A stretch of DNA of 64,000 nt, from the NCBI GenBank assembly GCA_963754085.1, contig CAVWFA010000009.1:7086-71085 (forward strand), read 5' to 3'. The notes beneath the pieces are model-generated. The model was given only the letters and a program-made list of their open reading frames with translations, had not been told where the DNA came from and did no database searches. The position numbers were made by a program, and so were the translations under genes. The stretch comes from Candidatus Aminicenantes bacterium (GTDB taxonomy: Bacteria; Acidobacteriota; Aminicenantia; Aminicenantales; Saccharicenantaceae). Positions 3,600 through 52,940 of this stretch are shown here, in pieces (positions within the stretch are counted from its first letter, which is position 1; every line of letters starts with the position of its first letter).

Positions 3600-3644
3600 A
3601 CTCTAAGCCCGGGACGCGAGGCCGTCAATGAGACCTTGGTCCAA
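3600..3644 (-). promoter_or_regulatory. candidate sigma70-type promoter with conserved upstream 16-mer (copy a)
   Basis: Minus strand reads TTGGACCAAGGTCTCA-TTGACG-17 nt-TAGAGT. It lies about 25 nt upstream of the mini-rhodanese ATG. Confidence 0.55.
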
Positions 3645-3664
3645 ACGCATCCGAGGCTCCCTCC

Positions 3665-4030
3665 TCATCCGGCCTGGCCCCGGGCCTTCTCGACGGTCTC
3701 GAGGCCCGCCGAGCTCGATATGGTATCGAATCTGATCTCCGGCCGTTTGGCCGCAAACTCCAAGGCGAGGAGCAGGTTGCGGTATTCGTCCGAACGGAGA
3801 TGACGGTCCATATCTTCACCGTTCCCCCAGACTTGCTCCAGCATGAGGACGTTCTTATCCTGCAGGTCCGCGTAGACGTGGCAGCTGAGGCACCCGGGAT
3901 CGTCTCTCGACAATTCCGCCACAGGCCTGAGGATCTCCAAGACCGCCTGGATCTTCGAAGGAGGCACGGTCATCCGGATGGTCGCCTGGATCATGGGGTT
4001 CTCGGTTTCAGCCGCTGCTAGCAGGGTCAT
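3665..4030 (-). CDS. ABM-type (dimeric alpha/beta-barrel) monooxygenase-like protein
   Basis: MIQATIRMTVPP...CLSCHVYADLQDKNVLMLEQVWGNGEDMDRHLRSDEY resembles the antibiotic-biosynthesis-monooxygenase fold. The true start is probably the internal Met at 3994, which fits the sigma-54 promoter position. Confidence 0.6.
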   Translation of the reverse strand: MTLLAAAETENPMIQATIRMTVPPSKIQAVLEILRPVAELSRDDPGCLSCHVYADLQDKNVLMLEQVWGNGEDMDRHLRSDEYRNLLLALEFAAKRPEIRFDTISSSAGLETVEKARGQAG

Positions 4031-4042
4031 GCCGTCCCCTAT

Positions 4043-4058
4043 TGCCGAAACCGTGCCA
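4043..4058 (-). promoter_or_regulatory. candidate sigma-54 (-24/-12) promoter
   Basis: Minus strand reads TGGCACGGTTTCGGCA against the consensus TGGCACG-N4-TTGCW. The GG and GC dinucleotides are at the exact spacing. It sits directly downstream of the sigma-54 activator gene and about 50 nt upstream of the Met at 3994. Confidence 0.55.
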
Positions 4059-4157
4059 GTGAAGGGACGGAGGACAACGATCTTGTTAAGCCGCTCTTAC
4101 CAGTTGACTTCCGTGGGGAAGAAGGAATGAGATCAAATCGAGACGGCTGAGCTATCG

Positions 4158-4173
4158 TGTCGGTATATCGACA
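4158..4173. promoter_or_regulatory. palindrome TGTCGGTATATCGACA, candidate enhancer (UAS) for the adjacent activator
   Basis: Perfect 5-N6-5 inverted repeat about 100 nt upstream of the -24 element, the usual distance for bEBP binding sites. Confidence 0.35.
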
Positions 4174-4180
4174 TTTGTCT

Positions 4181-6697: not shown

Positions 6698-6828
6698 GGC
6701 GTCGTTTTCTCAGGACCGCTTGTGACACAGAACGACCGATCCCCGATATGGCTAATTTAATAAAGAAGTTAGAAAAAATCAATGGACGCGTTCTGGCTTA
6801 TCGCGGTGACGAAGCGTAGACCGGGAAC

Positions 6829-7122: not shown

Positions 7123-7311
7123 AGGTGATCTCCTTTTCTTCCCCGAGTTATCAACGCCAAGCCACGTCGACGGGCCTCCGTAGCGGGGATCCGCTGGTCC
7201 TTCTCGGCCGGATACCCGATCACGAACGTTCCATACGCCATATAGCCTTCCGGGATGGGGACGGGGTGCCGGTCAATGGTGATCAGCCCCCCGGGGCAGG
7301 CCCGGATTTCC

Positions 7312-8166: not shown

Positions 8167-8229
8167 TGCAGATTCCTCCTTCAGCGATGATTCGATGTCA
8201 GCGGGCAGCGCCAGCGGAGATTTCGGGAA

Positions 8230-9679: not shown

Positions 9680-11368
9680 TCATTTAGCTGCAAGCATCGA
9701 CCGGGACATCATGCCGCCGGAGATGTTCCGGGCCTTGAACCCGTTCTGCAGAAGGATGCGCGTCGCGTAGTAGGCGCGCTGGGCCGAGCGGCAGATGACG
9801 TGGATCTCGCGGTCGCGGGGAAGTTCGGCCAGGCGCGCCCGGAGCTGCGGCAGGGGGATGTTGACCGCGCCCGGCACGGCGGCCACGGCGATCTCCGGCG
9901 GGTTGCGCACGTCGAGGAGGAACCCGTCGCCCAGGGAGTCCCAGTGGCTGAGCGGCATGTCGCCCCGCAGGACGTCGGCCGAGACCATGCCCGCGAAGTT
10001 GACGGGATCCTTGGCGCTGCCGAACGGCGGCGCGTAGCAGAGCTCGGATTCCTCCAGGTCGTACACCGTCGCCCCCATCTGGACGGCCATGGCCAGGGCG
10101 TCGATCCGCTTCTCGACGCCGTCCTTGCCCAGCGCCTGGGCCCCGAGGAGGCGCCCGTCGGATTTCCGGAAGAGGACCTTCAGGACGATCGTCTTGGCGC
10201 CCGGGTAATACCCGGCGTGCGAGTTCGGGAAGAGGTAGATCTTTTCGTAATCCTTCTGGCCTTGCCGGACCAGCTGCTTCTCGTTGGCGCCGGTCGTGGC
10301 CACCGTGGCCCCGAAGATCCCGATGACCGAGGTGCCCTGGGTGCCGCGGAAGCGGGAGTCGCGCCCGGCGATGACGTCGGCCGCGATCCGGCCCTGCCGG
10401 TTGGCCGGCCCGGCGAGGGGGATGAGCGTCCATTCGCCGGTGACGAAGTCCTTGACCTCGACCGCGTCCCCGACGGCGAAGATGTCCGGGTCGCTCGTGT
10501 GCATCTGGTCGTCGACCCGGATCCCGCCGCGCTTGCCGATCTCGAGCCCGGCCGCCTTGGCCAGCTCGGTCTCCGGACGCACGCCGATGGCCAGGATGAC
10601 CATGTCCGCCGGATAGGTCTTGCCGGACTTCGTGAGCACCTCGAGCGCGCCGTCGGCCGTCTGCTTGAATCCGGCCACCGCGTCGTTGAGCGCGAGGCGG
10701 ACGCCGTTCTCTTCCATGTGGCGCTCGACGAGGCTGGCGCACTCCGGGTCGAGCGGCGCCATGACGTGATCGAGCATCTCGACCAGCGTCACTTCGAGGC
10801 CGCGGTGGACCAGGTTCTCGGCCATCTCCAGGCCGATGTACCCGCCGCCGACCACGACCGCCCGCTTGACCTTGTCCAGCGGCCGGAAGCCCGTGGCCGA
10901 GCCCTCGCCGGTCCAGGCGCTCGAACCCCGGTCGATCCATTCCCGGATCTCCCGGGCGTCCGGCACGGTCCGGACCGAGAAGATGCCCGGCAGGTCGATC
11001 CCGGGCAGGGGCGGACGGATCGGGGCCGCCCCGGGCGACAGCACCAGCTTGTCGTACTTTTCGGTCGTGACTTCGCCCGTCACGTGGTTCTTGAGGGCCA
11101 CGGTCTTCTCTTTCGGCGAGATCCCGACCGCCTCGCAGCGCGTCCGGCAATCGATGCCGAACACGGCGCGGAAGGTCTGCTCGTTGGACACGAGCAGGCT
11201 GGCCTCCTTTTCGATGACGCCGCTGACATGGTAGGGCAGCCCGCAGTTCGCGTACGAAACGTACGGCCCGCGCTCCACCATGAGGATCTCGGCCTTCTCG
11301 TCCAACCGGCGCAGGCGCGCCGCGCACGACGCTCCGCCGGCCACTCCGCCGACAATGACGACTTTCAT
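9680..11368 (-). CDS. CoA-disulfide reductase / NAD(P)H persulfide-polysulfide reductase-like flavoprotein with C-terminal rhodanese domain
   Basis: 562 aa. Motifs seen: MKVVIVGGVAGGAS FAD motif, the redox Cys in SYANCGLPYH, a second dinucleotide fold VVVGGGYIGLE, and a C-terminal rhodanese LLDVRNPPE...HVICRSAQRA. Confidence 0.85.
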   Translation of the reverse strand: MKVVIVGGVAGGASCAARLRRLDEKAEILMVERGPYVSYANCGLPYHVSGVIEKEASLLVSNEQTFRAVFGIDCRTRCEAVGISPKEKTVALKNHVTGEVTTEKYDKLVLSPGAAPIRPPLPGIDLPGIFSVRTVPDAREIREWIDRGSSAWTGEGSATGFRPLDKVKRAVVVGGGYIGLEMAENLVHRGLEVTLVEMLDHVMAPLDPECASLVERHMEENGVRLALNDAVAGFKQTADGALEVLTKSGKTYPADMVILAIGVRPETELAKAAGLEIGKRGGIRVDDQMHTSDPDIFAVGDAVEVKDFVTGEWTLIPLAGPANRQGRIAADVIAGRDSRFRGTQGTSVIGIFGATVATTGANEKQLVRQGQKDYEKIYLFPNSHAGYYPGAKTIVLKVLFRKSDGRLLGAQALGKDGVEKRIDALAMAVQMGATVYDLEESELCYAPPFGSAKDPVNFAGMVSADVLRGDMPLSHWDSLGDGFLLDVRNPPEIAVAAVPGAVNIPLPQLRARLAELPRDREIHVICRSAQRAYYATRILLQNGFKARNISGGMMSRSMLAAK

Positions 11369-11395
11369 GGTTGTTCCTCCGTTTTCTTCTCTGAT

Positions 11396-11965
11396 CTATT
11401 TGGACTTGTTCAGCTTGCTGATCTTCGAGCCTTCCAGGGTCAGGTTGTACATCAGCCCCTTCTGGCCGACGATGAACCCGACGATCGGGGCTTTGATGTT
11501 CGTGGTGTCGATGGACTTCCCGGCCCCGATGTCGATGAGGACCACGGAGCCGTCCACGCCGGCCTTCCAGCCGCTGCTCTCCCGGAACTTCTTCAGGGCC
11601 TCCTCGGCCAGGAAGACGATGATGACGTCCTTTTTCTGGGCCCCGAACTGCAGGCCGATCGAGGCCGAGGAGATGCTGTAGTAATCGACGGTCTGGCCGC
11701 CGACGCGGAGCGCCCCTTCCCCGTGCTCGCCGCCGATCCCGAGGCCCGCCTTGATGACGCCGGCGAAGACGCAGACGCCCTTGGCGCTCTTGAGGAATTC
11801 GGCCGAGCCCTTCACTTCCTTCTGGAACCGGTCCAGCGCCGCGTCGACCTTGGCGTCGATCTCCTTGGCCGTGGCCGCCTGAAGGGCCGGGGCCCCGGAG
11901 AACACGAGAAGCAGGATCGCCGCCGCCAGGACGGCCTTCGGTCTTCCGTGGGACTTGGCGTTCAT
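11396..11965 (-). CDS. SYLF (Ysc84/DUF500) lipid-binding domain protein, secreted
   Basis: Signal peptide AAAILLLVFSGAPALQA, followed by GVCVFAGVIKAGLGIGGEHGEGAL...IGLQFGAQKKDVIIVF...APIVGFIVGQKGLMYNLTLEGSKI, typical of SYLF. Confidence 0.7.
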   Translation of the reverse strand: MNAKSHGRPKAVLAAAILLLVFSGAPALQAATAKEIDAKVDAALDRFQKEVKGSAEFLKSAKGVCVFAGVIKAGLGIGGEHGEGALRVGGQTVDYYSISSASIGLQFGAQKKDVIIVFLAEEALKKFRESSGWKAGVDGSVVLIDIGAGKSIDTTNIKAPIVGFIVGQKGLMYNLTLEGSKISKLNKSK

Positions 11966-11966
11966 G

Positions 11967-12928: not shown

Positions 12929-13306
12929 CTACGGGATCGACCCGTTCAGCTCCTGTTTCCGGACCAGTTCCAGCAGGGACTCCCCGGAGAACGGCTTCTG
13001 AAGATACCCGATCGCGCCGTTCTGCAGGGCGAACTCCCGCGCCTGGATGTCGGCATTCCCCGTGACCACGATCACCGGCATGCCGTGGCGCAGCTCCCGC
13101 ATCTTCTTCATCAGTCCGAACCCGTCGCAGACCGGCATGTGGATATCGACGATGGCATACCCGGTCTGCCCTGTCGGCACCGAGTCAAGGAACGACTGGG
13201 CCGACGCGAAGAACTCTGCGGGGATCCCTCGGGCGTTCAGCATTCGCTTGAGCGACTTGCCGAACGACAGGTCGTCGTCGACGATGCAAAAGGATAGCTG
13301 TTCCAA
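12929..13306 (-). CDS. single-domain response regulator (CheY-like receiver)
   Basis: FCIVDDDLSFGKSLKRML...YAIVDIHMPVCDGF...PVIVVTGNAD...GAIGYLQKPF. Uses a TTG start. Confidence 0.85.
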   Translation of the reverse strand: MEQLSFCIVDDDLSFGKSLKRMLNARGIPAEFFASAQSFLDSVPTGQTGYAIVDIHMPVCDGFGLMKKMRELRHGMPVIVVTGNADIQAREFALQNGAIGYLQKPFSGESLLELVRKQELNGSIP

Positions 13307-13355
13307 GTCCGTTCGGCCCTTTCCGCGGGCAGTCTCTCACAGGGCCGGAGGAGTT

Positions 13356-13376
13356 GTCTATTGGACCTTGGGCTAA
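13356..13376 (-). promoter_or_regulatory. conserved upstream 16-mer plus degenerate -35 (copy b)
   Basis: Minus strand reads TTAGCCCAAGGTCCAA-TAGAC. It overlaps the kinase stop codon and lies 50 nt upstream of the response-regulator start. The -35/-10 boxes are weaker than in the other copies. Confidence 0.35.
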
Positions 13377-15868
13377 GTGCCGCGAAGCGGCCGCCCGGGC
13401 CGGGCGAAGCGCCGGCGTTCGTTATCATCCTTCTCCGGGCTCCCCGACCCGGCTTTCAAGGCAAAATGGAAGATCGCGCCCCCCGCGGCATTGGTCTCCG
13501 CCCAGATCCGGCCGCCATGTTCGTCGAGGATCGATTGGCAGATGGTCAACCCCATCCCGAGGCCGTCCTTCTTGGTCGTAAAGAAGGGTTTGAACAAATT
13601 GTCCTGGCCCACCTGGCCGAACCCCGGCCCCGTGTCGCTGACGCTGACGACGACGGTGTCCGCCGCCGCCGCGGCGGAGCGGACTTCCAATACCCTCCGG
13701 GGCGCCCCTTTTATGGCGTCGACGGCGTTCGCCATCAGATTCAGCAGGACCTGCTCCAGCCGGACCCGGTCGCCGCGGACATCCGGCAGGCCCGTCGCCA
13801 GGTCTAACCGGAGCGTTATGTTGTTCATGGCCAAGCTGTTGCTCACAAGCCGGAGGACCTCCTCGATCAGGGCATTGACGTTCAGCGGCTCGAATTTCGC
13901 CTCGCCCTTTTTCACGATCCCCCGGATCTTGCGGACGACATCCCCGGCGCGAAGAGCGTCCTGGATGATATCCTCGACGATCTCGCCGATCTCCCCGCCC
14001 CCTCCCTCGACCCGGCCCAACAGCGACTTCGCGGCCTCGGCGTTGTTGAGGATCGCGCCCAGCGGCTGGTTGATCTCGTGGGCCAGGGAGGTCGAGAGCT
14101 CGTTCATCGTCATGACCCGGGCCAGATGAGCGAGCTCGTGGCGCATCTCGATCCTTTCGCTCTCGTCCAGCAGGTCTTTGGTGATATCGCGCGTCAGGCA
14201 GAGGTATCCCCGGTGCTCTTCGTCCGGCCCCCGAAGCGCCATGGACGAGACCTCGACAGTGAACTCGGACCCATCCCGCCGCAGGCCGGTGTAGATCCGG
14301 GGCGGCACGTCCCGGCCTTCCAGGATCTCCCGCATCGTCCGGGCGCCGCGTTCGCGGTCTTTTTCGGCGATGAACAGGGGGGTGTAGAGGCCGACGAGCT
14401 GCTCCGGAGAATCGTAGCCGTACAGGCGGGCCTGGAGGGAATTCGCGGCCCGGACATGACCGTCCGGTCCGATCAACACGATGCCCGCCGGGGCCGATTC
14501 GAACAACGTCCGGTAGCGCCGCTCCGAATCGGCCAGCGCCAGCTCCCCCTCCTTGCGCTCCGTGACGTCCAGGGACACCCCCTTCATGCTCGCCGGCTGG
14601 CCCGAGGGATCGAGGAACCCCTGGGCCCGGACGCCGACCCACCGAATGCGCCCGTCGGGCAGCACGACCCGGTATTCGGTCTGGACGATCGCGCCCTGGC
14701 GGAACCCCTGTTCCGCGACCAGACGGACCCGTTCGAGATCATCCGGGTGAAGCGTCCGCTCGTATCGATCGGCCGTGATCTCCTCGTCGGGCGCGAACCC
14801 GTAGAGCAGCCGGGTCTTGTCCGTCACCCAGATCTTTCCGGTCCGATAATCCCAGGACCACAGTCCGGCGCGGGCCGCGTCGGCGGCCAGCTGCAGCCGC
14901 GCTTCGCTCTCCCGCAGGTCGCCCTCGGTGAACTTCCGGTTCAGGGCGTTGGCGAAGATCTGGGCCACGATCCGCAGCTTGTCCCGCAGGTCCTCCGTCC
15001 ACTCCCGCTCCTCCTTCACGGCATTGAAGTTGATGGCCCCGAACGCCGGGCCGTCGCCCACATAGAGCGGGATCGTCAGGACGGACTTGAGGCCGAAATA
15101 CCTCCAGCCCTCCAGGTCGCGGGCGGCCTCCGGAGGAGCGTCGGCGACCCGGGACAACACGATCATCTCCTTTTGTTTCGACTTTTCGAAACACCAGGGG
15201 AACGTGACCTGGGCGTCCCGGCTTTCGTCGGTGACCACCGGGAACTCCGGGGGGACATAGATATGGGACATCACGAAATTCCCGAACGGCGTGAACTGCC
15301 ACAGGGCGCAGACGTCCAGCTTCAGGCATTCGCAGATCTGCCGCTGCGCGGCCAGGATCTCGCCATCCAGCTGATCGATCGGCAGGCCGATCAGCTTCGT
15401 CGATATGGCCGTCACCAATTTCTGGAAATTGGACCGCTCTTCCAGCTGTTCGTCCATCCGTTTCCGGTCGCTGATGTCCTCGACGATCGAAACGAACCAG
15501 CCCGGACGGCCGGTCACGTCGCGGACCAGGGCGACCGTCAGCCTGACCCAGACCGGCTCGCCGTCCTTGCGGAGGTAGCGCTTCTCCATGGCGTAGGAGT
15601 CGGCCTGTCCGGACAAGAGCCGGCCGGCCAGGGCGAGGTCGGCCTCGAGGTCGTCGGGATGCGTGATGTCCTGGAATGTGCGCTCGAGCATCTCGGCGGG
15701 CGAGTACCCCACGATATCGCAGAACTTGCGGTTGATGCGAAGGAATTTCCCGTCCGGTGAAACGTGGGCGATGCCGACCCCGGCCTGCTCGAACGTGACC
15801 CGGAAGCGTTCCTCGCTCGCCCGCAGGTCTTCCTCGACGCGCTTCCGGTTCAGCGCGTTGGCGAACAT
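13373..15868 (-). CDS. sensor histidine kinase, PAS-GAF-PAS-PAS-HisKA-HATPase (the largest intact frame of a longer, disrupted gene)
   Basis: H-box MNELSTSLAHEINQPL, N-box LEQVLLNLMANAVDA, G-boxes DTGPGF and GLGMGLTIC. The first ~330 aa are paralogous to the sensory module of the 4181..6697 activator. Confidence 0.8.
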   Translation of the reverse strand: MFANALNRKRVEEDLRASEERFRVTFEQAGVGIAHVSPDGKFLRINRKFCDIVGYSPAEMLERTFQDITHPDDLEADLALAGRLLSGQADSYAMEKRYLRKDGEPVWVRLTVALVRDVTGRPGWFVSIVEDISDRKRMDEQLEERSNFQKLVTAISTKLIGLPIDQLDGEILAAQRQICECLKLDVCALWQFTPFGNFVMSHIYVPPEFPVVTDESRDAQVTFPWCFEKSKQKEMIVLSRVADAPPEAARDLEGWRYFGLKSVLTIPLYVGDGPAFGAINFNAVKEEREWTEDLRDKLRIVAQIFANALNRKFTEGDLRESEARLQLAADAARAGLWSWDYRTGKIWVTDKTRLLYGFAPDEEITADRYERTLHPDDLERVRLVAEQGFRQGAIVQTEYRVVLPDGRIRWVGVRAQGFLDPSGQPASMKGVSLDVTERKEGELALADSERRYRTLFESAPAGIVLIGPDGHVRAANSLQARLYGYDSPEQLVGLYTPLFIAEKDRERGARTMREILEGRDVPPRIYTGLRRDGSEFTVEVSSMALRGPDEEHRGYLCLTRDITKDLLDESERIEMRHELAHLARVMTMNELSTSLAHEINQPLGAILNNAEAAKSLLGRVEGGGGEIGEIVEDIIQDALRAGDVVRKIRGIVKKGEAKFEPLNVNALIEEVLRLVSNSLAMNNITLRLDLATGLPDVRGDRVRLEQVLLNLMANAVDAIKGAPRRVLEVRSAAAAADTVVVSVSDTGPGFGQVGQDNLFKPFFTTKKDGLGMGLTICQSILDEHGGRIWAETNAAGGAIFHFALKAGSGSPEKDDNERRRFARPGRPLRGT

Positions 15869-17725: not shown

Positions 17726-20091
17726 CTACTGCCGCGCCAGCGCCATGCGGATGGCGTCCTCCGGCGAGATCAGGTGATCGGCGTCCTCGGCCGCCTCGGC
17801 GATGGCCAGCTGGACTCCCTTGACCCGGCCGTTGAACGCGTTGCCTTGCGGGCCGTAGTCCGGGGAGACCGGCGCGCCGGTGTCCTCGCCGACGTCGCAG
17901 CCGTCGTCGGCGGAGAAGATCGTCGCCAGCGTCGCCGGGATGTCGCCCTCGCCGACCTTCTTTCCGTCGGTGTAAAGGGTGACCTTGCCGCCCTTGCCCA
18001 GGCCGCCGCCGGCGTAGGCAAATTCCATGCGGACCTGGTGCTCTCCCGCGGGAATCGGGGCGGTCCCCTCGACAAAGAAGTGCTTGTAGCCGCCCCAGTT
18101 GTAACAGTACTTGAGCTTGCCGCCCTTGGCGTAGAGGCTCCAGCCGCCGATGTTCGCGCCCTGGGCGATGATGACGCCCTCGGCGCCCTTCGTCCGGCAC
18201 GACGATCTCGGCGGTGACGGAGTGGGACTTGTTCTTGAGGTTGAGGACGCAGTTCTCCGACAGGTGCCCCATGCCGCCGAAGAGGAGCTGGGTCTTGCCC
18301 TTGACGAGCACCGGCCGTCCGGCCGTGTCCGGGTTGATCTTCTCCATCATCCGGTCGTCGAGGGGCAGCACCTTGTAGCGCACCGCCTCGATCAGCCAGA
18401 GCCGCTGCAGCTCGTGGAGCTTCTGCGGCATATCCTTGGAGAGGTCCTTGGACTGGCTCCAGTCCTTGGCCGTGTCGTAGAGCTCCCAGACGTCGTCGTC
18501 GAGCGCCGGCCTCGGGGCCATGATCCAGGGCGTGTAGTGCTTCGTCACGGCGCTCCAGCCCTTGTGGTAGATGCGCGCGGTTGCCCATGACCTCGAAGTA
18601 CTGCGTCTCGTGCCGCTCCGCCGCCTTGGCGTCGTTGAACGAGTAGAGCATGCTGACCCCTTCGATCGGGTCCTGCTCGATGCCGTCCACGGATAGGGGC
18701 TCGGGAATGCCCGCCGCCTCGAGGACCGTCGGCGCCACGTCGATGACGTGGCTGAACTGGGAGCGGATCTCGCCCTTGGCCTTGATCCCCTTCGGCCAAT
18801 GGACGATGGTCCCGTTGCGCGTCCCGCCCCAGTGCGAGGCGACCTGCTTGGTCCACTGGTAGGGCGTATTCAGGGCGTGAGCCCAGCCCACGGCATAGTG
18901 ATTGTAGGACTCAGGCCCGCCGAGCTTGTCGAGCCGGGCCGAGAGATACTCGGGAGTCTCGAGGGACTGCAGGCCGTTGAAGTAGCTCATCTCGTTGAAG
19001 CAGCCGTTGAGCGATCCCTCGGCCGAGGCGCCGTTGTCGCCGATGATGTAGTAGACGAGCGTGTCGTCGGCGATACCCAGCTTGTCGAGACCGTCGAAGA
19101 GCCTGCCCACGTGGTGGTCGGTATACTCCAGGTAGCCCGCGTAGACCTCCATCTCCCGGCGCAGCACCGGCTTTAACGCCTCCGGCATTTCGTCCCAAGC
19201 CGGGACCTCCTTGGGGCGCACCGTGAGCTGACAGTCCGCCGGGACGACCCCGAGCTTCTTCTGCCGGGCGAAGATCTCCTCGCGCAGCTTGTCCCAGCCG
19301 GCGTCGAACTTGCCCTTGTACTTGTCGGCCCACTCCTTGGGCACATGGTGGGGCGCGTGGGTGGCGCCGGGAGCGAAATAAACGAAGAAAGGCTTGTCGG
19401 GCGCGAGGGCCTTCTGTTGGCTGATCCAGGCGATGGCCTTATCGGTCATATCCTCTATAAGGTGGTAGCCCTCTTCGGGCGTCTTCTTCGGTTCGACCGG
19501 GTTGGTGCCCTCGTACAAGGTCGGATACCACTGGTTGGCCTCGCCGCCGATAAAGCCGTAGAAGTACTCGAAGCCGCCGCCGCCCGTGGGCCATTGGTTG
19601 AAAGGCCCCGCCGGGCTCGTCTCCCACACCGGCACCTCGTGGCACTTGCCGAACTGGGCCGTGTTGTAGCCGTTGAGCTTGAGCGTCTTCGCCAGCGGCG
19701 ACATGCTGTTGGGCAGGACCGAGGAATAGCCCGGCGCGCCGGTCGCGATCTCGGTGATGCCGGCCATACCCGCCGAGTGGTGGTTGCGGCCGGTCAGCAG
19801 CGCCTGGCGCGTCGCCGAACAGATCGCAGTGGTGTGGAAGCGGTTGTATTTCAGGCCGCTTGCCGCCAGCCTCTCCGCGTTGGGCGCCTGGCAGGGGCCG
19901 CCGAAGGCGCTGGCCGCGCCGAAGCCCGCGTCGTCGATCAGCACGATGAGCACGTTGGGCGCGCCATGGGGCGGCCGCAGCTGCTCGATCGGCACCATCT
20001 TCGTGTCCGGGTCCTTTGCGTCGTAGGTGATCAGCGTGGGACGCTTCGTGTTCCGCATGGGAAGATGTGTTCGGTCTTTTTCGTCTGACAT
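17726..20091 (-). pseudogene. arylsulfatase (formylglycine type), two frameshifts
   Basis: N-terminus PNVLIVLIDDAGFGAASAFGG...TAICSATRQALLTGRNHH (a C-x-A-x-R FGly motif). It is colinear with the intact paralogue at 20145..22502. The frame changes near 18571-18580 (NRA|IYHKGWSAVTKHY) and 18181-18190 (VPDEG|AEGVIIAQGANIGGW). The C-terminal piece MEFAYAGGGLGKGGKVTLYTDG lies in a third frame. Confidence 0.8.
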
Positions 20092-20144: not shown

Positions 20145-22502
20145 TTATTGCCTCATCATGATGGCCTTCAGCGCGGCCTCGTCATCCTTGATCATCTCGC
20201 CGCTCACATCGACCGTGACGCCGTGGAGCTTGCCGGTGAACTTGAACGGAGGGTCGTACTTGTCCCACACCGGCGAACCGCCGTCGGCGCCGCAGACGAA
20301 GCCCCCGCCCAGTCCGAGCGACAGGGGCATGGTGAGCGGGATGTCGACCTGCCCGACCAGCCGGCCGTCGATATAGAGCTGGCCGCGGCCCGGCGCGCCC
20401 TTGCCGCTCTTGACGTCGGGCTTGCCGGTCACCTCGAACTCGAACCGCAGCTTGTGGCGCCCCTCGGGAACGGGAACGTTCGATTCCGCGTGATAGAACT
20501 GGCTGCCCACGTAGTTGTAGACATAGTGGAGCTTGCCGTCCTGCACGTAGACGGCGAAGCCGCCTTGGACATCGCCGGCGGACAACAGGACTCCTTCGGC
20601 GCCCCCCTTGGGGATCTCGGCGTCCGCCGTGATGCTGTGGGGCCGGTTCAGCACGGTGGGGCAGGCGTTGATCGGGACCGCCTGCGTGCCGGGATAGTAG
20701 GTGTAGCTGTTGCGGGCGACGGCGATCTGCGGCCGGGGGTCGGCGAACCGCAGCGTGCCGCGCGAGTCGACCGGCAGGACCTTGTACTTGCCGGCCTCGA
20801 CGTACCAGGTCGCGATCATCTCGATCAGCTTGGCCCTGTTCTCGGAGGCGAGGTTGTGGTTCTCGGCCCAGTCCTTCTCGATGTGGTAGAGCTCCCAGCC
20901 TTTCGCGTCCAGCTCGGTCAGCTTGTCCTTGTCGATCGGCGCTCCGAAGAACAGGCCCGCTTCCGTGAAGGACGTCCCCGGCCACGGGCAGACGGCGCGC
21001 CAGCCGTCATGATAAATGGACCGGTGGCCCATCATCTCGAAGTACTGGGTGACGTGCTTGCTGGGCGCCTTGGCCTCGTCGAGGGCGTGGGCGAAGCTCA
21101 ACCCCTCGATGGGCGCCTGCGTGACGCCCTTGACGGCGGCCGGGGTTTCGAGGCCGAGCATCTCGAGCACCGAGGGGACCATGTCGATCGCATGGGCGTA
21201 CTGGGTGCGGACTTCGCCCTTCGCCTTGATGCCCTTGGGCCAATGGACGATGAACGGGTCGCTGATGCCGCCGCGGTAGGTCTCCCGCTTCCAGCGGCGG
21301 AACGGGGTGTTGCCCGCGAAGGTCCAGCCCCAGGCATAGTGGTTGAAGGTGTTCGGCCCGCCCAGCTGGTCGATCATGGCCAGGTTCTGCTTCAGGTCGT
21401 CGGGCACGTTGTTGAAGAACTTGTTCTCGTTGACCGATCCGTTCGGCCCGCCTTCCGAGCTGGCGCCGTTGTCGGAGATGAACATGATGATCGTGTTGTC
21501 CCATTCGCCGATCGACTTGAGGAATTCGAACAGGCGGCCGTAATGGTAGTCCGTGTGGCTCAGGAACCCGGCGAACACCTCCATCATCCGGGCATACAGC
21601 TTCCTCTCGTCGGCCGAGAGCTTGTTCCAGTCCTGCACGTCGGGATCGTGGCGCGACAGCTCGGCGTCGGGCGGGATGATCCCCAGCTCCTTCTGGCGCT
21701 TGAACGTCCGCTCGCGGTAGGCGTCCCAGCCGTCGTCGAACTGGCCCTTGTACTTGTCGGCCCACTCCTTGGGGACGTGGTGAGGGGCGTGCATCGCCCC
21801 GGGACAGAAATACATGAAAAAGGGCTTGTTCGGCGCGACCTGCTTGGAGTCGGCGATGAAGCTGATCGCTTTGTCGGTCAGGTCCTCGGTCAGGTGATAG
21901 CCTTCGTCCGGCGTCTTTTCGGGCTCGACGCTGTGGTTGTCGTACACCAGCTCCGGATAGTACTGGTGCGTGTCGCCGCCGAGGAATCCGTAGTAGCGCT
22001 CGAACCCGCGGCCCAGGGGCCAGCGATCGTACGGACCGGCCGCCGAGATCTGGTCCGCGGGGGTCAGATGCCACTTGCCGATCGCGAAGGTGTTGTAGCC
22101 GTGCTGGAGCAGGATCTCGGAGAGCATCCCGTTCTCGAACGGCATGTAGCCGTTGCCGCCGGGGTATCCGGTCGAGCCCTCGGTGATGCACGACATGGCG
22201 TTGGAGTGGTGGTTGCGCCCCGTCAGGATGCACGAGCGCGTCGGCGAGCACAGCGCGGTGGTGTGCATGTTGTTGAAGAGCAGGCCGTTCTTGGCCAGCG
22301 CGTCGATGTTCGGCGTCTTGATCGGGCTGCCGTAGCAGCCCATCTGGCCGAAGCCGGTGTCGTCCTGGACGATGAACAGGACGTTCGGCGCGCCCTCCTT
22401 GGCCCGCAGCGGCTGGGGCCAGGCCGGGCTGGACACATCAAAAGTCCTTCCGATCACGCCGTTGAAGGCGGCACCGGGCTTGTACTCTTTTAGAACGGCC
22501 AT
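20145..22502 (-). CDS. arylsulfatase (formylglycine-dependent, Cys type)
   Basis: 785 aa from the ATG preceded by AAGGAGGG. Motifs seen: PNVLFIVQDDTGFGQMGCYGS, TALCSPTRSCILTGRNHH (C-x-P-x-R) and HAPHHVPKEWADKYKG. Confidence 0.9.
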   Translation of the reverse strand: MAVLKEYKPGAAFNGVIGRTFDVSSPAWPQPLRAKEGAPNVLFIVQDDTGFGQMGCYGSPIKTPNIDALAKNGLLFNNMHTTALCSPTRSCILTGRNHHSNAMSCITEGSTGYPGGNGYMPFENGMLSEILLQHGYNTFAIGKWHLTPADQISAAGPYDRWPLGRGFERYYGFLGGDTHQYYPELVYDNHSVEPEKTPDEGYHLTEDLTDKAISFIADSKQVAPNKPFFMYFCPGAMHAPHHVPKEWADKYKGQFDDGWDAYRERTFKRQKELGIIPPDAELSRHDPDVQDWNKLSADERKLYARMMEVFAGFLSHTDYHYGRLFEFLKSIGEWDNTIIMFISDNGASSEGGPNGSVNENKFFNNVPDDLKQNLAMIDQLGGPNTFNHYAWGWTFAGNTPFRRWKRETYRGGISDPFIVHWPKGIKAKGEVRTQYAHAIDMVPSVLEMLGLETPAAVKGVTQAPIEGLSFAHALDEAKAPSKHVTQYFEMMGHRSIYHDGWRAVCPWPGTSFTEAGLFFGAPIDKDKLTELDAKGWELYHIEKDWAENHNLASENRAKLIEMIATWYVEAGKYKVLPVDSRGTLRFADPRPQIAVARNSYTYYPGTQAVPINACPTVLNRPHSITADAEIPKGGAEGVLLSAGDVQGGFAVYVQDGKLHYVYNYVGSQFYHAESNVPVPEGRHKLRFEFEVTGKPDVKSGKGAPGRGQLYIDGRLVGQVDIPLTMPLSLGLGGGFVCGADGGSPVWDKYDPPFKFTGKLHGVTVDVSGEMIKDDEAALKAIMMRQ

Positions 22503-22538
22503 GATTCCCTCCTTTATCAAACAAACCTACACGGGCTA

Positions 22539-22584
22539 TCTGTATCCTGAAGCAATGTGGCGCGTCAATGGGACCTTGGGCTAA
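22539..22584 (-). promoter_or_regulatory. candidate sigma70-type promoter with conserved upstream 16-mer (copy c)
   Basis: Minus strand reads TTAGCCCAAGGTCCCA-TTGACG-18 nt-TACAGA, about 35 nt upstream of the sulfatase ATG at 22502. Confidence 0.5.
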
Positions 22585-26927: not shown

Positions 26928-26973
26928 TTAGTAGCAGGTGCCCCCGGGTAGGGTCAATGGGACCAAAGTCCAA
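26928..26973 (-). promoter_or_regulatory. candidate sigma70-type promoter with conserved upstream 16-mer (copy d)
   Basis: Minus strand reads TTGGACTTTGGTCCCA-TTGACC-18 nt-TACTAA. This implies a ~135-nt 5' UTR ahead of the radical SAM ATG. Confidence 0.55.
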
Positions 26974-27706: not shown

Positions 27707-27782
27707 ATCTATTCCTCCACCTTGATCTCGCATTCTATTAGACGGAATCCGGCCGGATTTCTTTCACCGGTCCTCCATCATA

Positions 27783-32792: not shown

Positions 32793-32812
32793 CGCTCGGA
32801 TCACTCCCCCGT

Positions 32813-32857
32813 CATTTATCAAAAGTGCCGGCCGGGGTCAATAGTACCATGGCCTCT
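32813..32857 (-). promoter_or_regulatory. candidate sigma70-type promoter with a diverged copy of the upstream 16-mer (copy f)
   Basis: Minus strand reads AGAGGCCATGGTACTA-TTGACC-17 nt-TAAATG. Confidence 0.45.
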
Positions 32858-34540: not shown

Positions 34541-34556
34541 CGCGGAATCCGCAGGG

Positions 34557-35198
34557 TCACAAGGAGATGATGCCGTGTCTTACGGCGTACTGGACCAGCT
34601 CGGCGCTGGTCTTGATATTGAGCTTTTCCATCATCCGGTACTTGTGGAATTCCACGGTCCGCGGCGATATATTCAGGATGGACGCGATCTCCTTGCCGGA
34701 CCGCCCTTCGGCCAGGAGCTGGAGGATCTCCCGCTCCCGGGGGCTCGTTTTCCGGAGAAGCTCCTTTTCCGGCGAGCCTCCCTCCCGATAAGTGCGGAGA
34801 AGGTCTCCTGCGACCAGGGGGGTGATATAGGTCCGTCCCTTCATCGCCTCATGGATCGCGGTGACGAGCTCGGAGGGCGCCGCGTGTTTCAGGACGAAGC
34901 CCGAAGCACCGGCCTCGAACGCGTCCGCCGCATAGGTCGCGTCCGGGTGCATGGTCAGGAACACGATCTTGACCCGCTTGTTCGCTTTTTTGATCTGCCG
35001 GGCCGCTTCGATGCCGTTGAGCTGGGGCATCGAGATGTCGGCCACGATCACGTCGGGACGGAGCTTGGCGGCCTGCTCGACGAGGACCCGCCCGTTCTCC
35101 GCGGTCCCGACGACCTCGAACTCGTCCCCCAGGAGCCCTTTCAGGCCCTCGAGCACGATGCGGTGATCATCGGCCAGCAGGACGCTCGTCTTACGCAT
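34557..35198 (-). CDS. NarL/LuxR-family response regulator (REC + HTH_LuxR)
   Basis: VLLADDHRIVLEGLK...DVIVADISMPQLNG...VKIVFLTMH, and a C-terminal SPREREILQLLAEGRSGKEIASILNISPRTVEFHKYRMMEKL. Confidence 0.9.
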   Translation of the reverse strand: MRKTSVLLADDHRIVLEGLKGLLGDEFEVVGTAENGRVLVEQAAKLRPDVIVADISMPQLNGIEAARQIKKANKRVKIVFLTMHPDATYAADAFEAGASGFVLKHAAPSELVTAIHEAMKGRTYITPLVAGDLLRTYREGGSPEKELLRKTSPREREILQLLAEGRSGKEIASILNISPRTVEFHKYRMMEKLNIKTSAELVQYAVRHGIISL

Positions 35199-37005
35199 TC
35201 TCCCTCCCCGCCAACGGCGCCCTCAGGGTGATCACCGTTCCCCGTTCGGGCCCGGACTGAATGGCCAGGTCGCCGTGGATCAGCCGGGCCCGTTCGCGCA
35301 TGCTCAGGAATCCCAGCCCCGGCCGGTCCCGGGCCTCCGCCCCGTCGAATCCGATGCCGTCATCCTCGATGGACAGGAGAACGTCGCGATCCAGGCCCCT
35401 CAGGGAAACGGACGCATGCTCCGCGCAGGCGTGTTTGGAGATGTTCCGCAACCCCTCCTGGACGATCCGGTAAAGATGAAGCGACACGTCTTGCGGGATG
35501 ACCCGGGGCATGTTCTCGTGGCGGAAGACGACCTCGAGGCCTTCCCGCTTCGAGACGCCGGCGCATTCCGATTCGACCGCCTTGATCAGCCCCAGATCGT
35601 CCAGGATCGAGGGGTGAAGCTGGCGCGACAGGCTATGGACATCCTGGGAGAGGCCGACGATCCCCTTCTTGATCTCTCGCAGTTCCTCTTTGACGGGACC
35701 CGCCGGATCCACCCACCGTTTCTCGAGCGCGCCGACCTCGATGGCCAGAACCGCCAGGCGCTGCGCCAGATCGTCATGAAGCTCCCGGGCGATGCGGCTC
35801 CGCTCTTCCTCGTGAGCGTCGATCAGCCGTCCGGCGAGCCGCCGGAGATCGTGCTCATTCTGTCTCAGGATCCTCTCGCTTTCCCGTGAGGCCTCCTCGG
35901 CTCCCTTCCGGGCCATGGCATTGACCAGGATATCCCCCAGCAAGCGCAGCCGCGGGATGAATCCGTTCGGCCAGGTCCGCTCCCTCCGGGTCGCCACGAG
36001 GGCACAGGATCCCTGCGTCATCCCGCCGCTCACCAGCGGGATCGAAAGAAACGATTTCATGCCCAGGCCCCGGCAAACCCGGCGCTCGCACTCCGCTTCG
36101 GGCGGCAGATCCTCCAGGCGGTTCACGACCACCGGTTTCCCCTGGATCAATTGCTCCAGATACCAAGGCATTTGGTCCTTGGATATGGATCCCGGGCCGG
36201 GGCCGGTCCCTGCGGCATGATGGTCAAAAGCGAGCGTCAGTCGGGTCCTATCCTCGGAGAACAATCCGATGCTGCACCGGTCTGCGTCGAAGAACTCGGC
36301 CATGCTGCGGATCCCTTTTTGGATCTCGCGGCCGATCTGGTCGAACGCTACGTACACGAAGCCGGCCGAAAGATCGGAGATCAGCTTCTCGAATCTGAGA
36401 CGTTCCTGGATCTCGAGCCGGGCCTGCTTACGCTCCAGCGCGTTGCTGAACACCTGGGCGATCAGCTGGAAGCCTTTCAGGACCGACTCCGGCCAGGCCC
36501 TCTCTTCCCGGATGACGGCGAATGACATCCCGCCAAAGACCGGCCCGCCTCCCACCGAAAAGGGAAACACCACCGTGGACTTGGTTCCGAAGAGGGTGTA
36601 GCTTTCCCGATCGCGGCCGGCTTCCTGCGGGAGCTCGGAGAGCTTCTGGACCGCGACCATCTGCCCGGACATGATCCTCTTTTCCGTCCACGGGAAGAGA
36701 TCGCTCGCATCGACCCCCTTGGGAACTGGCGGACCTCCGCCTGGCTGATTAAGATGTTTCAGGCGCAGCGTCCTGGGTTCCAGGTCGGAAAGGAGCCAGA
36801 GGGCGGAGCGATCGAGATCCAGGAATTCGCACACTTGGCGCTGGGCGTCGACGATTTCGGATTCGATCCGGTCCGGCGGCAGGTGGACGAAGCGCGCCGA
36901 TGTTTCGGCCAGGAACGTCTCGAATCGGAGCCGTTCCTCCAATTCGGCCCGCAGGGCGTCGAGGGACTCTGGGGCCATTTCCGGATCGGTAGGGACCCTC
37001 TTCAT
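35191..37005 (-). CDS. sensor histidine kinase, GAF-GAF-HisKA_3-HATPase (NarX/DegS type)
   Basis: HEEERSRIARELHDDLAQRLA (HisKA_3 H-box), LYRIVQEGLRNISKHA, DDGIGF. The N-terminal [27 protein letters not shown] is the same GAF signature as the other two sensors. An 8-nt overlap with the regulator gene. Confidence 0.85.
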   Translation of the reverse strand: MKRVPTDPEMAPESLDALRAELEERLRFETFLAETSARFVHLPPDRIESEIVDAQRQVCEFLDLDRSALWLLSDLEPRTLRLKHLNQPGGGPPVPKGVDASDLFPWTEKRIMSGQMVAVQKLSELPQEAGRDRESYTLFGTKSTVVFPFSVGGGPVFGGMSFAVIREERAWPESVLKGFQLIAQVFSNALERKQARLEIQERLRFEKLISDLSAGFVYVAFDQIGREIQKGIRSMAEFFDADRCSIGLFSEDRTRLTLAFDHHAAGTGPGPGSISKDQMPWYLEQLIQGKPVVVNRLEDLPPEAECERRVCRGLGMKSFLSIPLVSGGMTQGSCALVATRRERTWPNGFIPRLRLLGDILVNAMARKGAEEASRESERILRQNEHDLRRLAGRLIDAHEEERSRIARELHDDLAQRLAVLAIEVGALEKRWVDPAGPVKEELREIKKGIVGLSQDVHSLSRQLHPSILDDLGLIKAVESECAGVSKREGLEVVFRHENMPRVIPQDVSLHLYRIVQEGLRNISKHACAEHASVSLRGLDRDVLLSIEDDGIGFDGAEARDRPGLGFLSMRERARLIHGDLAIQSGPERGTVITLRAPLAGRENA

Positions 37006-37091: not shown

Positions 37092-37137
37092 TTGGGACCA
37101 AGGTCCCATTGACGGGCGGGCCGGGGGCGTTTAGTCT
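37092..37137 (+). promoter_or_regulatory. candidate sigma70-type promoter with the perfect-palindrome copy of the upstream 16-mer (copy e)
   Basis: TTGGGACCAAGGTCCCA-TTGACG-17 nt-TAGTCT. TGGGACC-AA-GGTCCCA is a perfect inverted repeat. This implies a ~175-nt 5' UTR. Confidence 0.55.
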
Positions 37138-37320
37138 GCCGATAGGGGCAGGGGAAAGACCGATCGCTTCAGGCGGCAGGGAGATTTTCTCTCTGCAATC
37201 AGGTAGTTTCCCGAGTTGTCGGGTTTCCCGGCCTCCCGTTAAAATGATGTACGGTTCATTATTGGGCTATCGAGAGGCCAGCCCTCGGGTTCGAAGGCCT
37301 GGAGCGAAAGGAGTTTGCTC

Positions 37321-38772
37321 ATGGGATCGATGATCATCTGTTCCGTGTTGTGTCTGGCCCAGTTCCTCGCCCCGGCAGCCTCGCCCGGCCCTCGGACACC
37401 CGGCGCATCTATGGCGATCGTTTCGGAGATCGGAGCGCTGCCCCACGGACCGGCGGATGCCCCGTCTGCCCCGAACGTCGCCGCGCCTCAGGAGGAGCCG
37501 TCTTCCGTGCAGGCCGAGTCCGGGCAGAAGGCGGCGGATACGGCTCCGAAGAAGGACGGGCCCACCCCGACTCTGGAGATCTGGGGAGAGTTCATGCCCG
37601 GCAACGGTTTTCTCGTTGCCAGAACCAGCTTCGGAGAGCTGGACATCAGCGGCTACGCGCTGGTGCGTTACATCAACCAGATGCCCGGTCAACAGACGTT
37701 CACCGACCACCTCGGCAACGAGCACGCAGGTCGACGGGCGGAATGACATCTTCCCCCACCGGGCGATGATCTTTCTCAAGGGGTGGCTCGGCACTCCCAA
37801 GCTGGTCTACAACATCCTCCTCTGGACGGTGAATACGACCGACCAGAAAGGGATCTTCCCGACCATCGGCTACCAGTTCAGCCGGAAATTCAGCCTGTAC
37901 GCGGGCATCAACGGCATTCCCGGCACCCGTTCGATCATGGGCTCGCACCCCTTCTGGCTCGGCACCGACCGGGTCATGACCGACGAGTTCTTCCGCCCCT
38001 TCTTCACCTATTCCGTCTGGGCCCAGGGCGAGGCTCTGCCGGGCTTCTGGTACAACGTCGTGCGTCGGCAACAACAACAGCGCCCTCGGCGTCAAGGCCG
38101 CGGACCTGGACCGCAAGTTCTCGTACGGCGCCTCCGTCTGGTGGATGCCGACGACGCACGAGTTCGGCCCGCGCGGGGGCTACGGCGATTGGGAGTGGCA
38201 CGACAAGCTGGCCACGCGGTTCGGCGTGGGTTATGCGATGAGCCCGGAGAACCGCCAGACCAGCGCCACCACGGGCCCCTCGAACAACACCACCTCTGAG
38301 ACTGGCGGACAGCCTCAACCTGTTCGACACCGACTCCCTGGCGACGGGGGTCACGGTCCAGTCGGCCGACTATCAGGTTGTCTCGGTCGACGCCGGGATC
38401 AAGCTCCGGGGGATCTTCCTCCAGGCCGAGCTCTACAACCGCTGGCTCGACAAATTCGTGGCGGACGGGCCGCTGCCGGTGACCCAGATCCACGATCTGG
38501 GCTTCTACGTCCAGGCGGCCTTCTTCCCGATCCCGAAAAAGCTCGAGCTCTACGCCGCGACCTCGCAGGTCTACGGCGACAAGGCCGCGGGATTCAGCAA
38601 CAGCAACGAATACCTGGCCGGCGCCAACTACTATCCCTTTGATTCGCGCAATTACCGCGTCAACCTCCAGGTCATCGACGTGAACCGTTCGCCGGTCAGC
38701 AGCACCTTCGGCTACTACGTCGGCGGCCAGAAGGGGACGACGGTCTCCATGGCGGCGTCGGTCTTCTTTTAA
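37321..38772 (+). pseudogene. outer-membrane porin (OprO/P-like or related), three frameshifts
   Basis: Signal peptide MGSMIICSVLCLAQFLAPAAS. The coding signal hops frames near 37725, 38064 and 38295. It ends ...VGGQKGTTVSMAASVFF (terminal aromatic). RBS AAAGGAG. Confidence 0.6.
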
Positions 38773-48698: not shown

Positions 48699-48733
48699 GG
48701 CTCCTTCGGCCCGTCGAACGGAAAAATGCGCTC

Positions 48734-51511: not shown

Positions 51512-51561
51512 CGGGATCTCCTTCCTGTTGAGGGCAGGTCGGTCCTCCAAGTTACAGGCCC

Positions 51562-51591
51562 ATGATATTCACGGCCCCGGGCGGGTGTCAA
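51562..51591 (-). promoter_or_regulatory. candidate sigma70-type promoter of the GH-like/anSME operon
   Basis: Minus strand reads TTGACA-18 nt-TATCAT. Confidence 0.55.
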
Positions 51592-51621
51592 TGACGAAGG
51601 AGGCCCCGGCCGGGAGGCCCG

Positions 51622-51651
51622 TTGACAAGCGCTTCCGGCCGCGCCTATAGT
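51622..51651 (+). promoter_or_regulatory. candidate sigma70-type promoter (divergent partner)
   Basis: TTGACA-18 nt-TATAGT, preceded by GGGAGGCCCG. Confidence 0.55.
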
Positions 51652-51682
51652 TGACCCAAGAGTCCGCCCCGGGAGGGACACT

Positions 51683-52852
51683 ATGAAGCGCCTTGCGACG
51701 ATCATTATTCTCGGCCTTTCCATCGTCATCCGGGCCGCGTCCGCGCCGCCCCGAGATTCGGCTCAAGCCCGGCCGGCGCAGCCCTCCCCTGCCCCGGGCG
51801 GAGCCCCGCTCGTCTTCCGCAACCAGGTCGTTTTCGACCAGCAAGGGCTCGGCCTGGAATACCTCCGGATGCTCGTCCCCAAGGATTGGGCCTTCAACGG
51901 CGGCCTCACCTGGAATTTCGCCAAGAACCCGCCCGAAGCGTTCCTGGTCTATACCGTCGCAAGCCCGGACGGCAGCTCGGTCATCCAGCAATTCCCCTAC
52001 GCGAACTTGTACTGGTCGCCGGACCAGCAGCTCCAGTATTCGTTCGCCCATATGGGGAGCACGATCATGCAGACCATGGGCGCGCTCGATTTCCTCCAGC
52101 GCGCCTTCATTCCCCAGGTCCGCCAGGGAGTGAGCGGCATCAAGGTCCTCGAAACCCAGCCGCTCCCGGCCGTGGCCCAGCAGGCCTTGGCCGTCACCAA
52201 CCTGACGCTCAATCTATTCGGCCAGATCTCGCCGCCCAACGCCCCCTATCAGACGCAGGCCGACGCCGGGCGGGTCAAGGTCGAATACACGGTGAACGGG
52301 CGCCGGATCATCGAAGATTTCGGGGTGATCGTCACCTATTACATCACCAACAGTCCGACGCTCTCGGGCATGGTCGTCCCGAGCGTCAGCTGGTCGCCCA
52401 CCGTCGTCAGCTTCCGCTGCCCGGCCGAGGAGATGCCGGCCAAGATCCGAACGTTCCAGATCGCCCTGATGTCCCGCTTCGACAATCCGGTCTGGCAGGT
52501 GAGCTATACGCGGCTCTGCGCCCTGGTCACTCGCGAACAGCTCCGCCAGCAGCAGGCGATCTTCGCCCGCTACCAGCAGATCCACAAGACGCTCGAGGAA
52601 TGCAACGACATCATCTGGCAGACCTATCAGAACAAGAGCGCCGCCCAGGACCGGATGTTCGACAGCTACAGTCAGGCGCTGCGGGGTGTCGACACCTATG
52701 TCGACCCGGTCAACAACTGGAACGTCGAGCTGCCGACGGGCTACGGCAACGCCTGGACGAACGGCACGGATTACGTCTTCAGCGACAGCTCCAGCTTCAA
52801 CCCGAACACCCTGTCCTCGGGGAACTGGCAGAAGATGACCCCCAAACGCTGA
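51683..52852 (+). CDS. secreted hypothetical protein
   Basis: 389 aa with signal peptide MKRLATIIILGLSIVIRAASA. No motif I can assign. Confidence 0.5.
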   Translation: MKRLATIIILGLSIVIRAASAPPRDSAQARPAQPSPAPGGAPLVFRNQVVFDQQGLGLEYLRMLVPKDWAFNGGLTWNFAKNPPEAFLVYTVASPDGSSVIQQFPYANLYWSPDQQLQYSFAHMGSTIMQTMGALDFLQRAFIPQVRQGVSGIKVLETQPLPAVAQQALAVTNLTLNLFGQISPPNAPYQTQADAGRVKVEYTVNGRRIIEDFGVIVTYYITNSPTLSGMVVPSVSWSPTVVSFRCPAEEMPAKIRTFQIALMSRFDNPVWQVSYTRLCALVTREQLRQQQAIFARYQQIHKTLEECNDIIWQTYQNKSAAQDRMFDSYSQALRGVDTYVDPVNNWNVELPTGYGNAWTNGTDYVFSDSSSFNPNTLSSGNWQKMTPKR

Positions 52853-52894
52853 AGAGGGGCCGGAGGGAGGGCCCGCGGTCGGTCCTCGAGGCGT

Positions 52895-52940
52895 ATAGGA
52901 CTAAGGTCCGATTGAATCCCGCTCGGGGGTCTGGTATAAG
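52895..52940 (+). promoter_or_regulatory. candidate sigma70-type promoter with conserved upstream 16-mer (copy k)
   Basis: TAGGACTAAGGTCCGA-TTGAAT-17 nt-TATAAG. Confidence 0.55.

Follow-up and report, generated by a model that had tools for sequence, protein, structure and literature searches.

A 7-2-7 palindrome flush with the -35 box as the probable operator of a NarL/FixJ-family response regulator in Candidatus Aminicenantes

Introduction

NarL sites are 7-2-7 inverted repeats, and the yeaR promoter of Escherichia coli has one such repeat immediately before the -35 element, with its centre at -43.5 (PMC10853779). The complex at this promoter, resolved by cryo-EM, is a non-canonical class II one: NarL touches the C-terminal domain of the RNA polymerase alpha subunit (alpha-CTD) and not sigma-4; residues Lys188, Val189 and Lys192 contact bases, and at another E. 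coli promoter, ogt, NarL/NarP sites are centred at -44.5 and -77.5 (PMC10853779). In the StyS/StyR system of Pseudomonas fluorescens ST (StyR structure, PDB 1yio), the phosphorylated StyR dimer activates PstyA from a high-affinity inverted repeat, STY2, at about -40 (PMC2442086). FixT is named as a companion in FixL/FixJ systems, the motif reported for FixJ is GTACGTAG, and unphosphorylated FixJ is reported to repress nif promoters in R. palustris (PMC13327599). Here we describe a 16-mer of similar anatomy that recurs before genes in a 64,000-nucleotide stretch of DNA (hereafter, the window) from a Candidatus Aminicenantes bacterium.

The window corresponds to positions C9:7086-71085 of the assembly G000 (2.96 Mb, 66% G+C, 32 contigs, 73% complete); other G numbers denote comparison genomes. 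We consider it probable that the 16-mer is the operator of a dimeric response regulator of the NarL/FixJ family, with a LuxR-type helix-turn-helix (HTH), most likely the protein that we call RR-B, which would activate about 20 promoters from a class II-type position. Because the site has the same anatomy as NarL and StyR sites, we read it as the same kind of activator site. It would consist of two inverted heptamers T(T/G)GGACC, 2 bp apart, flush against a sigma-70-type -35 element and centred at about -43.5. Once phosphorylated, the regulator would bring in RNA polymerase or hold it at the promoter, in the manner of NarL in the non-canonical class II complex at yeaR, and RR-B would act in a conserved module made of a FixL-like PAS/GAF kinase, RR-B itself, the operator-promoter and a single-domain receiver. 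This is a control element of an ordinary, known kind; the clade of its regulator is uncharacterised.

As at yeaR with NarL/NarP, the 16-bp 7-2-7 site stands directly upstream of the predicted -35, the regulator combines a receiver (REC) domain with a LuxR/GerE HTH, and the recognition-helix positions that contact bases in NarL are, by hand alignment, those that vary here together with the half-site. The heptamer differs, T(T/G)GGACC here as against the NarL consensus TACYYMT, and in contrast to NarL and NarX the regulator is by sequence FixJ/StyR-like and its kinase a FixL-like HisKA protein, not one of the HisKA_3 type. StyR, the closest solved homologue of RR-B, is a phosphorylation-driven dimer and an activator that binds an inverted repeat next to the -35, as we propose for RR-B. 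However, it serves one catabolic promoter with the help of extra low-affinity sites and IHF, whereas here there is a single site at each of about 20 promoters, and STY2 (ATAAACCATGGTTTAT) has only an ACC-NN-GGT core in common with the operator. FixL and FixJ, of the oxygen-sensing systems of alpha-proteobacteria, are the proteins that the kinase transmitter and the regulator resemble most, and a single-domain receiver goes with the pair here, as FixT, a feedback inhibitor of FixL, does there; yet both proteins score under the respective equivalog cut-offs, and the reported FixJ motif differs from the operator. Class II sites of the CRP/FNR type share a dimer-type palindrome touching the -35 region, but differ in sequence, in centre (-41.5 as against a predicted -43.5) and in regulator family.

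Results

The Motif and Its Lock to the -35 Element

Eight strand-positions in the window match the consensus TTGGACCAAGGTCCCA with at most three mismatches, where 0.49 would be expected; in 100 shuffles a count of eight was never attained. A preliminary description of the window had listed seven copies abutting a -35 box. Six strong copies are indeed present (Table 1), although the two 21-mers on the plus strand begin one base later than given there, at 37093 (to 37113) and 52896 (to 52916). The -35 and -10 elements are as described, with spacers of 17-18 nt and a weak -10 for the copy at 13356-13376, and the orientation agrees with the downstream gene in every case. The seventh copy is uncertain: its matrix score of 14.6 lies in a range (12-19) where chance genic matches also occur, and it is probably a promoter with a degenerate operator.

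A scoring matrix built from the good copies was applied to the whole of G000, whose gene calls are rough (GC3-based, 88% coding). The 23 top matches (score at least 21) are intergenic, with a co-directional gene 0-202 nt downstream; three of them touch a long open reading frame call, in our view an artefact of gene calling. Genic and intergenic matches become mixed once the score drops under about 19. Parts of C9 recur on contigs C1 and C19 as variants with 93-98% identity, and after removal of such duplicates about 18 firm and three weaker promoters remain, 13-14 of them on a contiguous stretch formed by C24 and C9, which a 703-bp overlap joins at the start of C9. So small and clustered a set therefore points to a small regulon and not to a global element.

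The palindrome is locked to the -35. When G000 was searched for the palindrome only (TKGGACYWWRGTCCMA, up to two mismatches), 19 of the 24 matches, all 19 intergenic, had a TTGAC-like pentamer flush on one side (offset exactly 0); five others lie within genes, carry two mismatches and have no such pentamer. Across 66 distinct sites from G000 and ten related genomes, the consensus is T(T/G)GGAC(C/T) WW (A/G)GTCC(C/A)A, that is, two inverted heptamers 2 bp apart (7-2-7). A -10-like hexamer lies at 17 or 18 nt in 61 of the 66. Because the procedure that picked the -10 favoured these spacings, the base frequencies within the hexamer are the firmer evidence: A occupies position 2 in 62 sites and T position 6 in 54. 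From the positions of the two hexamers, the predicted centre of the operator falls at about -43.5, directly upstream of the -35. By comparison, the 233 other intergenic TTGAC-N17/18-TAnnnT sites of G000 have background composition upstream, and none reaches a right-half score of 7; the earlier suggestion that the right half alone is kept at other promoters thus finds no support.

In G069 and G003 there are divergent genes that share one palindrome, with a -35 at either end of it; a symmetric dimer site would permit this arrangement. Palindrome, -35 and -10 are kept while the flanks diverge before the receiver-only gene (operator 2, with orthologous promoters in G003, G038 and G244), before the radical SAM gene (operator 4, whose motif and -35 are identical in G038) and at operator 5 (in G003 and G038); operator 1 is also conserved in G003.

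The Candidate Regulator and Its Module

The island formed by C24 and C9 encodes two LuxR-type HTH regulators, which we call RR-A and RR-B. The best solved relatives of RR-B are StyR (1yio, 1.6e-49) and FixJ (5xso, 7e-44); among NCBIfam equivalogs it scores 210 bits with the FixJ model, under the cut-off of 255, and 67 bits with the NarL model. G000 has exactly one regulator of the RR-B helix class. We surveyed 246 genomes of the order: 11 have an RR-B-like gene (E<=1e-35), and the motif family is present in every one of these 11. In G093 a fragment lies at a contig end. A copy of the operator adjoins the RR-B gene in G000, G003 and G244, as well as at 10 loci of other phyla.

The surroundings form a recurring cassette: a 390-aa membrane protein, a PAS/GAF kinase, an operator, a receiver-only gene, RR-B, a further operator and a DUF481 outer-membrane protein. 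In G003 (C256, locus L027, 6140-8218) a 692-aa PAS kinase stands between the membrane protein and the receiver-only gene. At G000:C24:10800-10849 these two genes are 49 bp apart and the kinase copy is missing.

The PAS-GAF-PAS histidine kinase of the window has a kinase core matching that of FixL (E 1e-60), with 318 bits for the FixL model, under its cut-off of 850. Its homologue elsewhere is the kinase encoded directly before the candidate regulator, which makes the window's kinase the likely sensor. Heme-type sensing as in FixL was considered and set aside: read by eye and without alignment to FixL, the last PAS domain, before DHp, has no His at what we take to be the position of the proximal heme His. 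The single-domain receiver at 12929-13306 is a candidate feedback element.

Covariation of Helix and Half-Site

RR-B orthologues with the recognition helix SEKTVK(F/V)HRA pair with the half-site TTGGACC (KFHRA or KVHRA with GGAC), and proteins with SERTVKAHRS, namely a paralogue in G092/G094 and the G126 protein, pair with TTGTACC...GGTACAA right after their own genes. By hand alignment to NarL, the changed residues presumably fall on its Val189 and Lys192.

The same pairing was looked for in 80 FixJ-like loci from many phyla, one genome per species, by asking for a 16-mer score of at least 15 within 6 kb of the regulator. The palindrome was found at 15 of the 15 loci with the helix EKT[VI]K[VIF]H and, marginally, at 4 of the 65 others (Fisher 6e-13, for loci that are phylogenetically non-independent); it never accompanied the true FixJ-type helices (RTVE[IV]HRA) among the 80. 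At 10 of the 15 the palindrome comes 0-220 bp behind the regulator gene. Where checked, a receiver-only gene follows the palindrome, and a FixL-like kinase is encoded immediately upstream. In these other phyla the hexamer following the palindrome is degenerate (TTTACA, TATACT, TATCCA, TGGCGG), yet a -10 stands at 17-18 nt; a predicted -35 of this sort is the look of activator-dependent promoters.

Distribution and the Shared Island

The 246 genomes were searched for the motif with up to three mismatches to the G000 consensus, and the reversed pattern, used as control, gave 0-1 match per genome. Multiple copies were detected in few lineages: G000 and G003 (of 42 genomes in the genus), G038 and G244 (another family), all five species of one genus (G091-G095), and G069. 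A degenerate pattern adds G084, G102, G125, G126 and G129, some of which have a variant half-site, TTG(T/C)AC. In G069, sites at C1:1016669-1019874 and 1202516 (loci L073 and L074) are among about nine good ones, two of them bidirectional, before outer-membrane protein and receiver-only genes; the only similar LuxR-type regulator of this genome has the helix SVKTISTHRARI.

The island, about 80 kb long (C24 plus window 1-54000, compared with C1/C2 of G038), is common to G000 and G038 gene by gene, with 45-97% protein identity (97% for the radical SAM protein, 89-92% for others). GyrB, a highly conserved protein, was taken as the yardstick of divergence, RpoB and RpoC not being found among the gene calls. 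It is 75-80% identical between G000 and G038, as against 90-95% between G000 and congeners that have neither motif nor regulator. Island proteins up to 97% identical beside so divergent a GyrB show that the island moved laterally together with its operators, and most congeners are without the island; the comparison indicates that the whole regulon was transferred along with its regulators.

The strain variants C19 and C9 differ by a whole operator-promoter. At C19:10136-10210, about 100 bp with TTAGCCCAAGGTCCCATTGAC and a -10 lie between the genes for a Ysc84-like protein and a Pyr_redox-rhodanese protein; the counterpart on C9 (window 11368-11396, C9:18453-18481) is 27 bp only, with no promoter. 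The sulfatase promoter (window 22564-22584) has exactly the 21-mer seen on C19.

Regulon Content and Other Features

The genes behind the operators encode a rhodanese and a glycyl radical enzyme of the PFL2 class, with a second such enzyme on C4, three sulfatases, a radical SAM/SPASM protein, a GH63-like hydrolase, a receiver-only protein, an SBF transporter and a Pyr_redox-rhodanese flavoprotein. Many others are outer-membrane or exported proteins (OMP_b-brl, DUF481, DUF2490, Omp85/POTRA, Gly-zipper, DUF4136). The second PFL2-type enzyme (G000:C4:173342-175901), also behind an operator copy, is split into pieces of 611 aa and 254 aa, which could reflect a frameshift or a calling artefact. A role of the radical SAM/SPASM protein behind operator 4 as an anaerobic sulfatase maturase was not demonstrable, there being no such NCBIfam match.

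Table 1. Operator-promoters and regulatory genes; positions are those of the window unless a contig is named.
Feature	Position	Strand	Elements	Genes downstream or remarks
Operator-promoter 1	3600-3644	-	palindrome 3629-3644 (TTGGACCAAGGTCTCA); -35 TTGACG 3623-3628; -10 TAGAGT 3600-3605	rhodanese 3375-3575, then glycyl radical enzyme 841-3267
Operator-promoter 2	13331-13376	-	palindrome 13361-13376 (TTAGCCCAAGGTCCAA); -35 TAGACA; weak -10 GAGACT	receiver-only response regulator 12929-13306, SBF transporter, Ysc84-like, Pyr_redox-rhodanese flavoprotein
Operator-promoter 3	22539-22584	-	palindrome 22569-22584; -35 TTGACG; -10 TACAGA	two sulfatases, 20145-22520 and 17770-20091
Operator-promoter 4	26928-26973	-	palindrome 26958-26973 (TTGGACTTTGGTCCCA); -35 TTGACC; -10 TACTAA	radical SAM/SPASM 25225-26787, outer-membrane channel 23390-24319
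Operator-promoter 5	37093-37137	+	perfect 7-2-7 palindrome 37093-37108 (TGGGACC AA GGTCCCA); -35 TTGACG 37109-37114; -10 TAGTCT 37132-37137	leader of about 200 nt, then porin-like region
Operator-promoter 6	52896-52940	+	palindrome 52896-52911 (TAGGACTAAGGTCCGA); -35 TTGAAT; -10 TATAAG	outer-membrane beta-barrel 53064-53900
Doubtful seventh copy	32813-32857 (21-mer 32837-32857)	-	AGAGGCCATGGTACTA before TTGACC-N17-TAAATG	DUF2490 32040-32822, 1420-aa BcrAD/BadFG-type activase fusion 27778-32040
RR-B	G000:C24:14591-15223		REC + GerE (Response_reg + GerE)	about 21 kb left of the window, by the C24/C9 overlap
PAS-GAF-PAS histidine kinase	13373-15868	-	FixL-like transmitter	homologue of the kinase directly before the candidate regulator elsewhere
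Single-domain receiver protein	12929-13306	-		always first gene after an operator copy
Second two-component pair	34557-37005	-	GAF/HisKA_3 kinase 35191-37005; NarL-like RR-A 34557-35198	divergent from operator 5

An Rfam scan of the window gave no match, so no known RNA accounts for the long leaders. The leader after operator 5 (37140-37310) contains blocks, for example ATC(A/C)GGTAGTT...CGAGTTGTC, that are conserved across G000, G003 and G038 (orthologues L025 and L017), and it may be a regulatory RNA or leader element. The porin-like region that follows (37315-38772) is spread over several frames (143-, 280- and 104-aa pieces), of which only the last matches Porin_O_P; one RNA contig has a 1-nt deletion at 37726, inside this region. 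Among public sequencing runs, the locus was present in metagenomes only. Three metatranscriptomes of a related sample gave a few short contigs (e.g., 32214-32477 and 34556-34754, about 99% identity), which have no usable 5' ends. A literature search for the motif string returned unrelated primers only, which is weak evidence that the motif is undescribed.

Discussion

We infer that RR-B binds the palindrome, that it activates rather than represses, and that the site holds this position relative to the real transcription start. Several observations weigh against this reading. The placement at -43.5 comes from predicted -35 and -10 hexamers rather than from mapped starts. G069, a single 4.35-Mb contig, has about nine good sites and no RR-B homologue, and sites are present in G084 and G125, both incomplete genomes, in which no RR-B was found. 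The co-occurrence of RR-B and motif within the order is confounded by linkage on the island and by shared descent. In G000 itself, RR-B is encoded on a contig other than that of the window, linked to it by the 703-bp overlap only, and C24 lacks the kinase that precedes the receiver gene in G003. Finally, the near-consensus -35 (TTGAC) of the G000 sites is unusual for strictly activator-dependent promoters and would fit a repressor or modulator.

A protein of the same family might thus bind the site but repress or anti-activate, occluding the approach of alpha-CTD and sigma-4 at strong promoters until a signal arrives. With such a -35 and a decent -10, the G000 promoters might fire unaided, and the reported repression of nif promoters by unphosphorylated FixJ in R. 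palustris offers a precedent (PMC13327599). Sites of repressors, however, are usually found at varying positions that overlap the -35, the -10 or +1, whereas this one keeps an offset of exactly 0 at all promoters in all phyla; in other phyla, moreover, the degenerate -35 (TATCCA, TGGCGG, TATACT) beside the palindrome resembles that of activator-dependent promoters. We regard repression as unlikely, if the most serious of the alternatives. Slightly less likely still is that another regulator binds the site, either the NarL-like RR-A or a further factor. RR-A and its kinase are encoded divergently from operator 5, and the sites of G069 occur without RR-B. Close orthologues of RR-A, on the other hand, are confined to G000, G003 and G038, while G244, G091-G095, G102, G126 and G129 have the motif without it, and the helix classes into which its PRTVEFHKYR falls show no association with the palindrome. 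RR-A was rejected as the binder on this distribution and helix class.

The two explanations that had been offered in the preliminary description, a global class II regulator of the CRP/FNR type and an extended -35 or UP-like element specific to the lineage, which RNA polymerase itself would read, both now appear very improbable. What survives of the former is its geometry, which a dimeric activator in a class II-type position fits: the palindrome stands beside the -35, and its 5-4-5 core GGACC-N4-GGTCC has the half-site spacing of an FNR box. The global scope does not hold, since the sites number about 20 and lie mostly on one laterally shared island, and most congeners lack the motif. Nor does the family, as the 7-2-7 site has its predicted centre 2 bp further upstream than -41.5 and contains no box of the TGTGA-N6-TCACA or TTGAT-N4-ATCAA type. 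The suggested search for CRP/FNR-family regulators found no HTH_Crp_2 domain (PF13545) above cut-off in the 73%-complete G000, only two matches of 22-23 bits in a 140-aa frame, whereas 14 of 14 control genomes score. As for an element read by the polymerase, the fixed position relative to the -35 would be natural, but the motif is G+C-rich and palindromic, and one copy works in both directions. It is also absent from most genomes of the genus and yet occurs in other phyla beside one regulator clade. Because it left no trace at the 233 other promoter-like sites of G000, a general extended -35 or UP-like element was rejected.

Returning to RR-B as activator, the pairing across phyla suggests a wider rule, to which we give an even chance: TTGGACC-AA-GGTCCAA may be the conserved operator code of an uncharacterised FixJ-like clade (helix EKT[VI]K[VI]HR) in Acidobacteriota, Verrucomicrobiota, Desulfobacterota, metagenome-assembled genomes labelled Bacillota, and others. 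The clade would always come in a three-part module, with a FixL-like PAS/GAF kinase and the regulator, an operator-promoter and a single-domain receiver. In Aminicenantes, this minimal autoregulatory circuit would have expanded to a regulon of about 20 promoters, travelling between families with the island and gaining or losing operator-promoter cassettes between near-identical strains.

The mechanism itself would be conventional. We know of no studied transcription factor in this uncultured phylum, and to our knowledge the regulator clade is likewise unstudied; the analysis provides a testable regulon and operator for the former and, for a branch of the FixJ/NarL family that is widespread but uncharacterised, a DNA code. 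The covariation of helix and half-site constitutes a small natural experiment on the specificity of the LuxR-type HTH. Oxygen-sensitive radical enzymes and sulfatases are joined in the regulon with sulfur-handling genes and outer-membrane channels, and the signal of the kinase would tell when sediment Aminicenantes switch on this metabolism.

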